This document shows, piece after piece, positions 34,132 through 37,137 of a stretch of 64,000 nt of DNA. The notes under the pieces are model-generated. The model was not told the origin of the DNA, ran no database searches, and worked only from the letters and a program-made list of their open reading frames with translations. Source of the DNA: Eledone cirrhosa (lineage: Eukaryota); assembly GCA_964016885.1 (NCBI GenBank), contig OZ024740.1:94364001-94428000 (forward strand). The letters are read 5' to 3'. A program made the position numbers and the translations under genes. The stretch's first letter is position 1, and the number at the start of each line of letters is the position of its first letter.

Positions 34132-37100
34132 ATAAATGGAATAAAATGAAACGAAATTTCATTTCACACTCTTAGTACGGCACTTACTTAAATGTAAGTA
34201 TGTATGTATACAGACGTACAGTAGCATGTATATATATATATATATATATATATATACGTACAGGCACACATATATATATGCACGTATCAGTTTACCGAAC
34301 ATTTATTATAATGTTCGGTTTGTTTGTTTGTAAACAAACAAACAGCCTGAATTACGCTGTACAGTGTTTAGGCAACCACACACACCTTTTTGTTCAACAC
34401 TGACACAGAAACGATGTACTAGTTTCAAGCTTATTAGCTATCGTCAGCACCGTATACCTTTCTGCCAGATGGTTGAACGTCCGAAAGTATATACTTTCCC
34501 TATGAAAATTAACGGCTGAGCAGCCTAATTTGCATATCGACTGAGTTCAGTCGGCCAGGCGCAACGAAAACGATAAATGGAATAAAATGAAACGAAATTT
34601 CATTTCTCACTCTTTCAGGGCACTTACTTAAATGTAAGTATGTATGTATACGTACATACATATATGTATACAGACGTACAGTAGCATGTATATATATATA
34701 TATATATATATATATATATATATATATATATATATATATATATATATACATACTGGCAGACATATATATATATGCACGTATCTGTTTACCGAACATTTAT
34801 TACAATGTTCGGTTTGTTTGTTTGTAAAGAAACAAACAGCCTGAATTACGCCGTACAGTGTTTAGGCAACCACGTCACCTTTTTGTTCAACACTGACACA
34901 GGAACGATGTACTAGTTTCAAGCTTATTAGCTATCGTCAGCACCGTATACCTTTCTGCAAGATGGTTGAACGTCCGAAAGTATATACTTTCCTTATGAAA
35001 ATTAACGGCTGAGCAGCCTAATTTGCATATCGAGTGAGTTCAGTCGGCCAGGCGCACCGAAAACGATAAATGGAATGAAATGAAACGAAATTTCATTTCT
35101 CACTCTTAGTACCGCACTTACTTAAATGTAAGTATGTATGTATACGTACATACATATATGTATACAGACGTACGGTAGCATGTATATATATATATACATA
35201 CAGGCACACATATATATATGCACGTGTCAGTTTACCGAACATTTAATATAATGTTTCGGTTTGTTTGTTTGTAAATAAATAAACAGCCTGAATTAAGCCG
35301 TACAGTGTTTAGGCAACCACGTCACCTTTTTGTTCAAACTGACACAGGAACGATGTACTAGTTTCAAGCTTATTAGCTATCGTCAGCACCGTATACCTTT
35401 CTGCCAGATGGTTGAACGTCCGAAAGTATATAGTTTCCTTATGAAAATTAACGGCTGAGCAGCCTAATTTGCATATCGAGTGAGTTCAGTCGACCAGGCG
35501 CACCGAAAACGATAAATGGAATAAAATGAAACGAAATTTCATTTCTCACTCTTTAGGGCACTTACTTAAATGTAAGTATGTATGTATACGTACATACATA
35601 TATGTATACAGACGTACAGTAGCATGTATATATATATATATATATATATATATATATATATATATACATACATACTGGCAGACATATATATATATGCACG
35701 TATCTGTTTACCGAACATTTATTACAATGTTCGGTTTGTTTGTTTGTAAAGAAACAAACAGCCTGAATTACGCCGTACAGTGTTTAGGCAACCACGTCAT
35801 CTTTTTGTTCAACACTGACACATGAACGATGTACTAGTTTCAAGCTTATTAGCTATCGTCAGCACCGTATACCTTTCTGCAAGATGGTTGAACGTCCGAA
35901 AGTATATACTTTCCTTATGAAAATGAACGGCTGAGCAGCCTAATTTGCATATCGAGTGATTTAGTCGGCCAGGCGCACCAAAAACGATAAATGGAATGAA
36001 ATGAAACGAAATTTCATTTCTCACTCTTAGTACCGCACTTACTTAAATGTAAGTATGTATGTATACGTACATACATATATGTATACAAACGTACGGTAGC
36101 ATGTATATATATATATACATACAGGCACACATATATATATGCACGTGTCAGTTTACCGAACATTTATTATAATGTTCGGTTTGTTTGTTTGTAAACAAAC
36201 AAACAGCCTGAATTACGCCGTACATTGTTTAGGCAACCACGTCACCTTTTTGTTCAAACTGACACAGGAACGATGTACTAGTTTCAAGCTTATTAGCTAT
36301 CGTCAGCACCGTATACCTTTCTGCCAGATGGTTGAACGTCCGAAAGTATATAGTTTCCTTATGAAAATTAACGGCTGAGCAGCCTAATTTGCATATCGAG
36401 TGAGTTCAGTCGGCCAGGCGCACCGAAAACGATAAATGGAATAAAATGAAACGAAATTTCATTTCTCACGCTTTTAGGGCACTTACTTAAATGTAAGTAT
36501 GTATGTATACGTACATACATATATGTATACAGACGTACAGTAGCATGTATATATATATATATACATACAGGCACACATATATATATGCACGTATCAGTTT
36601 ATCGAACATTTATTATAATGTTCGGTTTGTTTGTTTGTAAACAAACAAACAGCCTGAATTACGCCGTACAGTGTTTAGGCAACCACGTCACCTTTTTGTT
36701 CAACACTGACACAAGAACGATGTACTAGTTTCAAGCTTATTAGCTATCGTCAGCACCGTATACCTTTCTGCCAGATGGTTGAACGTCCGAAAGTATATAC
36801 TTTCCTCATGAAAATTAACGGCTGAGCAGCCTAATTTGCATATCGAGTGAGTTCAGTCGGCCAGGCGCACCGAAAACGATAAATGGAATAAAATGAAACG
36901 AAATTTCATTTCTCACTCTTAGTACGGCACTTACTTAAATGTAAGTATGTATGTATACGTACATACATATATGTATACAGACGTTTCAGTAGCATGTATA
37001 TATATGTATATATACATACAGGCACACATATATATATGCACATATATATATATGCACATATATATATGCACATATATATATGCACATATATATATATGCA

Positions 37101-37137
37101 CATATATATATATGCACGTATCAGTTTACCGAACATT
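34132..37137 (-). repeat. Tandem array of a ~441-493-bp unit, 6 full copies plus a partial, HHR-containing (putative non-LTR retrozyme)
   Basis: ataaatggaat starts at 34132, 34573, 35066, 35512, 35987, 36432 and 36879; length variation is mostly an internal (TA)n. Confidence 0.96.
34411..34453 (-). ncRNA. Minimal type I hammerhead ribozyme (first of 6; others start at 34904, 35350, 35826, 36270, 36717)
   Basis: Minus strand: acggtg-CTGACGA-t-agct-aata-agct-t-GAAA-ctag-TA-catcgt; palindromic stem III ACTAGT; GUA cleavage between 34417 and 34416. Confidence 0.88.

Follow-up and report, generated by a model that had tools for sequence, protein, structure and literature searches.

The tandem array on the minus strand at positions 34,132 to 37,137 of the window, a 64,000-nucleotide stretch of the genome of Eledone cirrhosa, is a non-LTR retrozyme on every sequence feature tested. 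The repeat carries a hammerhead ribozyme (HHR) motif, a promoter box shared with host U6-type genes, and ends of the kind left by Penelope-like elements (PLEs). The retrozyme class is already known, as are HHR satellites with promoters of their own; what is new is the matched host promoter box, together with the scars of PLE insertion. The anatomy of the insertions, their copy numbers, the subfamily-level constraint on both the ribozyme and the region of the promoter, the match of the box to that of host genes, and the copying of units across the predicted cut site are direct observations on the genome. There are good grounds to favor a mechanism in which this abundant, non-coding HHR tandem is transcribed from the U6-type box, cut by dimeric hammerheads, circularized, and copied into TA repeats by the RT/GIY-YIG protein of a Penelope-like element, probably of the Hydra clade.

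The retrozyme literature, in the portions available, leaves open both the transcribing polymerase and the inserting enzyme, and the 446-bp family offers a testable answer to both. The promoter box can be mutated and compared with that of host U6 genes, and the Penelope-type scars, with a defined 3' priming point, occur beside intact Hydra-type ORFs. An earlier note on this DNA, made from the letters alone, stands as to retrozyme identity and abundance; its family count and its refutation test do not stand, and it had missed the PLE-type ends and the promoter box.

Structure of the array and its predicted ribozyme

Read from 37137 to 34132 on the minus strand, the array holds a 5'-partial and a 3'-partial unit besides complete ones, and its end at 34132 lies on a long (TA)n run. 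The ~445-bp HHR tandem unit described in the earlier note is borne out, with ~6.7 units of 444-493 bp. In successive units (minus strand), the predicted cuts are followed on their 3' side by bases 36722, 36275, 35831, 35355, 34909 and 34416, and the spread in the cut-to-cut spacing of 444-493 nt is mostly due to an internal (TA)n. The invariant 43-nt HHR that had been reported in six units was also recovered, as six identical copies starting at 36759, 36312, 35868, 35392, 34946 and 34453 (minus). The unit has a GC content of 36.5%, and no ORF of at least 150 aa is found in the array except for microsatellite read-throughs at its edge. All three of the further hairpins that had been pointed out are seen in the predicted monomer fold, which is more stable than 100 of 100 shuffles (z -5.7).

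Table 1. Positions of the features of the array in the window (-, minus strand;., no strand)
Feature	Position	Strand	Remark
Tandem retrozyme array	34132..37137	-	~6.7 units; 5'-truncated at 37137; fixed 3' end of the family at 34132
Type I HHR motif, copy 1	36717..36759	-	Predicted cut after GUA; U-U at stem II base; palindromic stem III
HHR copies 2-6	36270-36312, 35826-35868, 35350-35392, 34904-34946, 34411-34453	-	Pattern match
Extended stem I	34885..34971	-	Coordinates of copy 34904-34946; outer helices beyond an internal loop; pairing mostly preserved under subfamily changes
Two body hairpins of the earlier note	36155..36203	-	One set per unit; predicted fold
Terminal tail, ~60 nt, with hairpin	34132..34190	-	At one insertion end; missing from inverted arms
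(TA)n microsatellite at 3' junction, probable target	33419..34131	.	Junction comparison
Octamer-containing 12-nt box	36831..36842	-	Same as host box of U6, U6atac, MRP and tRNA-Sec genes
Other copies of the box	36384-36395, 35940-35951, 35464-35475, 35018-35029, 34525-34536	-	One per unit
Second 11-nt block	34994..35004	-	Identical in 466-bp family; candidate PSE-like element; one per unit
TATA-like box	36793..36799 (others begin 36352, 35908, 35432, 34986, 34493)	-	43 nt after box start

The units carry a predicted self-cutting RNA, a type I HHR. The HHR core, consisting of CUGANGA, GAAA and UH around three helices and open at helix I, is present, and the predicted ribozyme fold exceeds the 43 nt, with stem I continuing via an internal loop to ~87 nt. 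Rfam gave no match in the array at the gathering score. The best match, on a 111-nt stretch, is to Hammerhead_HH9 with 14.8 bits (gathering 52) and E 0.24, with the same three-helix layout, and an E-value scan of 33000-38000 was dominated by miRNA models that resemble microsatellites. On its own, the 101-nt HHR region shows no unusual stability (z -0.97). The single hammerhead fold, at -13.8 kcal/mol, lies 7.5 kcal/mol above its optimum of -21.3, whereas the double-hammerhead fold, at -44.4 kcal/mol, lies 1.6 above the two-strand optimum of -46.0. Given that the double form is near its optimum and the single form far above, HHR cleavage is predicted to be dimeric.

The array resembles the metazoan non-LTR retrozymes described in PMC7229834, which are type I HHR tandems of 150-450 bp with low GC, a structured monomer, no LTR, PBS or PPT, and co-occurring PLEs. 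The U-U at the base of helix II is as in axolotl HHR_Amex2, and the single-pair helix III with a palindromic tetraloop is as in axolotl HHR_Amex1 (PMC7229834). In the available text of that paper, PLEs are named only as strong candidates and the word promoter occurs twice, both times for T7 clones. Unlike that account, the present one includes PLE tails, inversions, TA targeting and a host U6-type box.

Between the units of the window array, 37 of 388 non-microsatellite columns are variable. The HHR had been noted to be invariant beside variable flanks; the probability of finding no variable column in 43 is indeed 0.01, but a 53-nt run outside the HHR is equally invariant, and invariance within the array is by itself weak evidence. 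Units 3 and 5 differ at 7 columns and units 2 and 4 at 9 of the 388, versus 10-25 for the other pairs, and these units (2/4 and 3/5) share two variants that are each found in 1 of 169 other segments, overlapping loci included. The shared rare variants point to two units having been locally duplicated or converted once the array was in place.

Copy number, related families and constraint

In the 3.0-Gb genome searched, the exact 40-nt HHR pattern has 1,012 matches and an exact 20-nt pattern upstream of the HHR has 9,385, with none for either reversed control. The copies are dispersed genome-wide as monomers to multimers. Most insertions consist of only one or two units, and the array at locus L145 reaches 10. 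A degenerate HHR pattern gave 6,251 matches, and the 310-bp type accounts for 99 of the first 100 listed. Another 14,332 HHRs share this geometry, versus 52 in the control, and mostly belong to tandems of ~466-469 bp and 310-311 bp among the first 100 listed. The 466-bp unit aligns with the 446-bp unit from end to end, with ~62% local identity (E 1e-24) and 60% global identity. The proposal of two independent, abundant retrozyme families holds for identity and abundance but is too narrow, given that there are at least three unit families and one of them is this relative of the present unit. The lack of evident similarity to the 310-bp unit was confirmed, with a best E of 0.08 that lies in microsatellite and a 12/13 match at the 3' ends with E 1.1. 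The HHR geometry, earlier stated to be identical in these two units, is common to all of the families. Since stem II differs in sequence between them but is still paired within this one geometry, the ribozymes of the three unit families are suggested to be related.

The ~466-469-bp family (L249-L252, L268-L278) forms arrays of at least 30 units, with a G-C pair at the base of stem II, GUU or GUC cuts, and the promoter box kept. The 310-bp array of the window, at 14076-16910, has PLE anatomy, with an inverted arm bearing a ~40-nt tail at 14076-14338, direct array ends without the tail, and (TA)n on both sides; it has no promoter box, and a T4 run follows just after the ribozyme. Another repeat of the window (18083-18440, minus, and 23972-24254) has an HHR-like motif with a stem II like that of the 310-bp family and a tail like that of the Hydra-type PLE; it may connect the ribozymes of retrozymes with the ends of PLEs, and no adjacent ORF was seen. 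Degenerate HHR-like motifs occur in other repeat families at 37400-37480 (minus) and 27380-27930, the latter in an inverted structure between (TA)n runs.

Constraint was assessed with copies chosen on a non-HHR upstream 20-mer, at 70 loci on contig C1 that make up most of the first 100 matches listed. These loci gave 90 distinct segments, and 83 rows remained after seven truncated rows were dropped. A change common to at least 7 of the 83 rows was taken as shared by a subfamily. Shared changes fall in none of the 11 core columns and in 4 of the 43 HHR columns, versus 32 of 95 unselected flank columns (P 0.003 by Fisher tests that count related columns as independent). The four HHR columns comprise N7, a base of loop II, and the two partners of a stem I pair, which covaries as G-U in 40 rows, U-G in 21 and A-U in 18 of the 83. 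Three outer stem I pairs vary on one side only, and the outer pair 119-173 can form in only 38 of the 83 rows. The core and H17 are intact in 67 of the 83 copies, and private changes per site are at 2.6% in the core versus 1.9-3.7% in neighboring bases. Because the core is spared from shared changes while private changes occur at the rate of its neighbors, the source lineages appear to be constrained in the HHR while inserted copies decay. Decay of the core at the rate of the flanks had been named as a refutation of the ribozyme, but this test was mis-set, given that dead insertions would decay in just that way and that constraint is visible only in the subfamily-shared changes.

The promoter box and its host counterparts

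A U6-type promoter normally lies outside of its own transcript, such that it is lost on retrotransposition. In the retrozyme, an octamer-containing 12-nt box lies 89 nt before the HHR core in each unit. With 0-1 mismatches, the box is present at -77 to -80 in 7 of 7 host Pol III type-3 genes, against a background of 0.04%. The seven genes, picked as intact after viewing and with six weaker tRNA-Sec matches left out, are three U6 loci, one U6atac, the single MRP gene and two tRNA-Sec. In each of them, TATA stands at -30 or -31. None of three U2 promoters has the box. It is also missing at that position from the U6 loci L104 and L105 and from 9 of 10 U6atac-like loci, and the loci without it would seem to be pseudogenes. 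At U6 locus L097, the box is displaced by a SINE; a SINE-like repeat at 37150-37325 (minus) adjoins the 5' end of the window array, and it is a near-identical copy of this repeat that interrupts the L097 promoter. The host Pol III type-3 promoters are compact, with the octamer box at -77 to -80 and TATA at -30 (L091-L093, L231, L309-L311), and would be useful for U6 expression cassettes in this animal.

Features of the unit speak both for and against use of the box. The region from the box to the TATA-like box has shared changes in 2 of 33 columns (P 0.001; 83 rows). The 466-bp family keeps both boxes, with the same short spacing, and the longest identical runs between the 446- and 466-bp units are the box, the second 11-nt block and the tail hairpin. 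The start site would lie 5-10 nt 5' of stem I (36764-36769 for copy 1). T4 runs between this site and the tail hairpin occur in 3 of 52 bodies, versus A4 runs in 34 of 52; the 52 bodies are related, and the T4-free stretch of 273-339 nt in the 446- and 466-bp units is not significant by shuffling for either one (P 0.06-0.10 and 0.23). Before the next HHR stand two T4 runs in the 446-bp unit, and two T5 and two T4 runs in the 466-bp family, all of which Pol III would need to read through. The 310-bp family lacks the promoter box, yet spreads in the same way. On this sequence evidence, the unit probably contains a working promoter and, if it does, Pol III is slightly favored as the polymerase. 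Against Pol III, the spacing from box to TATA is 43 nt in the unit versus 47-49 in the host genes, or 4-6 bp short. In the Pol III promoters of insects, such spacing is reported to be closely conserved (PMC1761439).

Known HHR satellites offer a comparison. The promoter of the schistosome satellite is of the tRNA type and internal. The retrozyme is like that satellite, which is transcribed by Pol III, and like newt satellite 2, with its snRNA-type Pol II promoter, in being an HHR repeat with a promoter, here a probable one, of its own (PMC2220036). Unlike both, the element in the unit matches the host Pol III type-3 box, which is U6-class and gene-external. Neither a U6-type box in a retrozyme nor this family was found in the literature at the level of titles and abstracts (including PMC10886601 and PMC6155905), a search that lay mostly outside of subscription papers and repeat databases.

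Insertion anatomy and the proposed route of mobilization

Copies of the family share one fixed 3' end, which corresponds to window position 34132, with variable 5' truncation. A dinucleotide microsatellite, mostly TA, directly adjoins 61 of the 71 tail ends scored over 107 distinct loci, and likewise 27 of the 35 ends called as lacking the tail. At 24 of the 107 loci, a tail end and a no-tail end form an outward-pointing inverted pair, in which the inverted arm lacks the ~60-nt tail; such an arm is absent from the window array locus. The end anchors fit the young subfamily and 31 of the 107 loci gave no end, so that these counts are lower bounds. A classification of ends by BLAST was discarded, given that the self-complementary microsatellite part gave false strands, and the anchor-based classification was used. 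Inside the arrays, the tail passes directly into the following unit at 109 junctions. The 310-bp and 466-bp families show the same kinds of end.

PLEs are marked by truncated 5' ends, partial tandems, inversion of the 5' arm and a tail at just one end, and the Hydra clade by the DKT and CxCx5C motifs and insertion at (TA)n (bioRxiv 2021.04.23.441226). The retrozyme shares with Hydra-clade PLEs, as described there, the (TA)n insertion, the 5' truncation, the partial tandems, the inverted 5' arm, the one-end tail and an HHR; unlike them, it has no ORF and no sequence in common with the families sampled. Its tail of ~60 nt compares with 30-40 nt in that report and 78 nt in the Hydra-type family of this genome.

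With the PLE remnant of the window as the query, 62,377 first-look candidates were obtained in the genome, and 150 were scored. Among the genome PLEs are some with ORFs of 784-795 aa and both the DKT and CxCx5C motifs, which are Hydra-clade marks. Eight loci with such ORFs have tail or no-tail ends at (TA)n, with an inverted pair in three of the eight. Pfam returned no family for the 790-aa PLE ORF nor for the window remnant, and the clade assignment rests on the motifs. Comparison of the unit with 30 + 8 PLE loci at the DNA level gave nothing below E 0.2, and the 3' regions of eight diverged PLE fragments have no shared tail, box or HHR. Many more diverged PLE families are present in the genome (33-54% aa identity). 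Since no sequence is shared with the sampled PLEs and these families remain, a partner PLE can be proposed for the retrozyme but was not found among the families sampled.

The Hydra-type PLE remnant of the window, at 28188-30490, has RT thumb and GIY-YIG parts at 29103-29930, an inverted upstream arm with a tail, and (TA)n flanks; further PLE fragments lie at 19706-20284 and 47185-48521. Close to its 3' end, the intact Hydra-type family (L241-L248) carries a GAAA / stem III / GUC-like segment. A pattern search found no canonical CUGANGA in range of it, and the family possibly has a variant ribozyme core. U6atac and U6 pseudogene-like copies (L233, L104) immediately follow a PLE tail and (TA)n, which would fit use of the same insertion targets.

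The template of reverse transcription was studied with 30 matches, from 27 insertions, that were selected solely by the 65 nt directly following the cut and walked in the 5' direction. Of these copies, 29 cross the cut site, 25 continue beyond the putative start site, 20 reach far enough to contain the box and 15 go past the tail end of the preceding unit, with three ending within 6 nt of the cut. This excludes a cut linear monomer as the usual template, whereas a circle or an uncut multimer could fill that role. A SINE-like linear transcript was likewise rejected as the usual template, the 5' ends having no pile-up at the putative start site.

In the favored mechanism, transcription would begin from the U6-type box, shortly before stem I, and some transcripts would read into the next unit, such that a monomer extending from HHR to HHR holds the promoter in its last ~155 nt. 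Multimers would be cut by dimeric hammerheads to monomers, which would then form circles. Reverse transcription would start at a fixed internal point, where the tail end pairs with the TA target, and would run round past the cut site, thereby placing the promoter back in front of the ribozyme. The enzyme would be a Penelope-like RT/GIY-YIG protein, probably of the Hydra clade. If this is true, a repeat that keeps a U6-type promoter is a neat case for a circular intermediate, and the unit is a naturally occurring promoter-ribozyme cassette with which circular RNA could be produced. The fuller proposal is more tentative, at rather less than an even chance: a superfamily including at least the 446- and 466-bp families, with thousands of copies, would keep a gene-external U6-type Pol III promoter via circular RNA and a Hydra-clade RT at TA microsatellites.

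The same element could be mobilized in the same way with its box driving Pol II, or both polymerases, if the short spacing switches specificity and Pol II reads through T runs to generate multimers. This is doubtful but deserves serious attention, given that the departure from host spacing is kept in both families, that T4-T5 runs stand before the next HHR, and that newt satellite II is said to carry an snRNA promoter for Pol II (PMC2220036); the absence of the box from the U2 promoters speaks against it, as does the near absence of T4 runs from only the part between start site and tail. A different doubt concerns the circle. Rather than a circle, an uncut linear multimer from a tandem source array could be the template, with the ribozyme serving for RNA turnover or trimming. 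An uncut precursor also explains the copies that cross the cut, and the weak single HHR fold and the many insertions of only one or two units are in keeping with it. This reading is nonetheless unlikely, given that the catalytic core is fully kept across subfamilies, that the 3' end is fixed inside the repeat unit, that units of some arrays are near-identical (at L051-L053 and L137 they differ by 0-2 nt over 241), and that circles have been shown for coral, mussel and axolotl retrozymes (PMC7229834).

Two other explanations dispense with the retrozyme as an element of its own. The unit could be the pseudo-LTR of an unsampled autonomous PLE and the tandems its truncated insertions, which would account for an end anatomy that is the same as that of PLEs and would parallel the Xenopus retrozymes, which resemble PLE pseudo-LTRs (bioRxiv 2026.07.22.740005). 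The internal tail-to-next-unit junctions and the 10-unit array argue against this, as does the finding that no unique coding sequence was visible beyond any of the 30 5' ends (30 nt viewed for each), and it is improbable. Growth of a satellite by local unequal crossing-over, with a chance or dead hammerhead, is suggested by the alternating units of the window and their rare shared variants, but is hardly credible for a family whose dispersed copies number in the thousands and show fixed ends and inversions, nor does it fit the compensatory change in stem I. Local duplication explains part of the window array, not the family.

The retrozyme belongs to the class treated in bioRxiv 2026.07.22.740005, where retrozymes are regarded as non-autonomous PLE derivatives, the evidence in the available text being co-occurrence and pseudo-LTR homology in Xenopus. 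The proposed partner is the same, and the local amplification by unequal crossover described there fits the alternating units here. Unlike the Xenopus case, no PLE homology was found here, and the insertion anatomy is the evidence. In that report, eight of nine predicted Xenopus retrozyme dimers were uncleaved in vitro, which counts against the cleavage predicted for the present unit.

Other retroelements are present in the window. A LINE at 58388-61951 has a 1187-aa endonuclease-RT frame (Pfam Exo_endo_phos, RVT_1, zf-RVT), a broken second copy lies at 52589-55461, and another RT fragment is found at 55879-57730 (minus).
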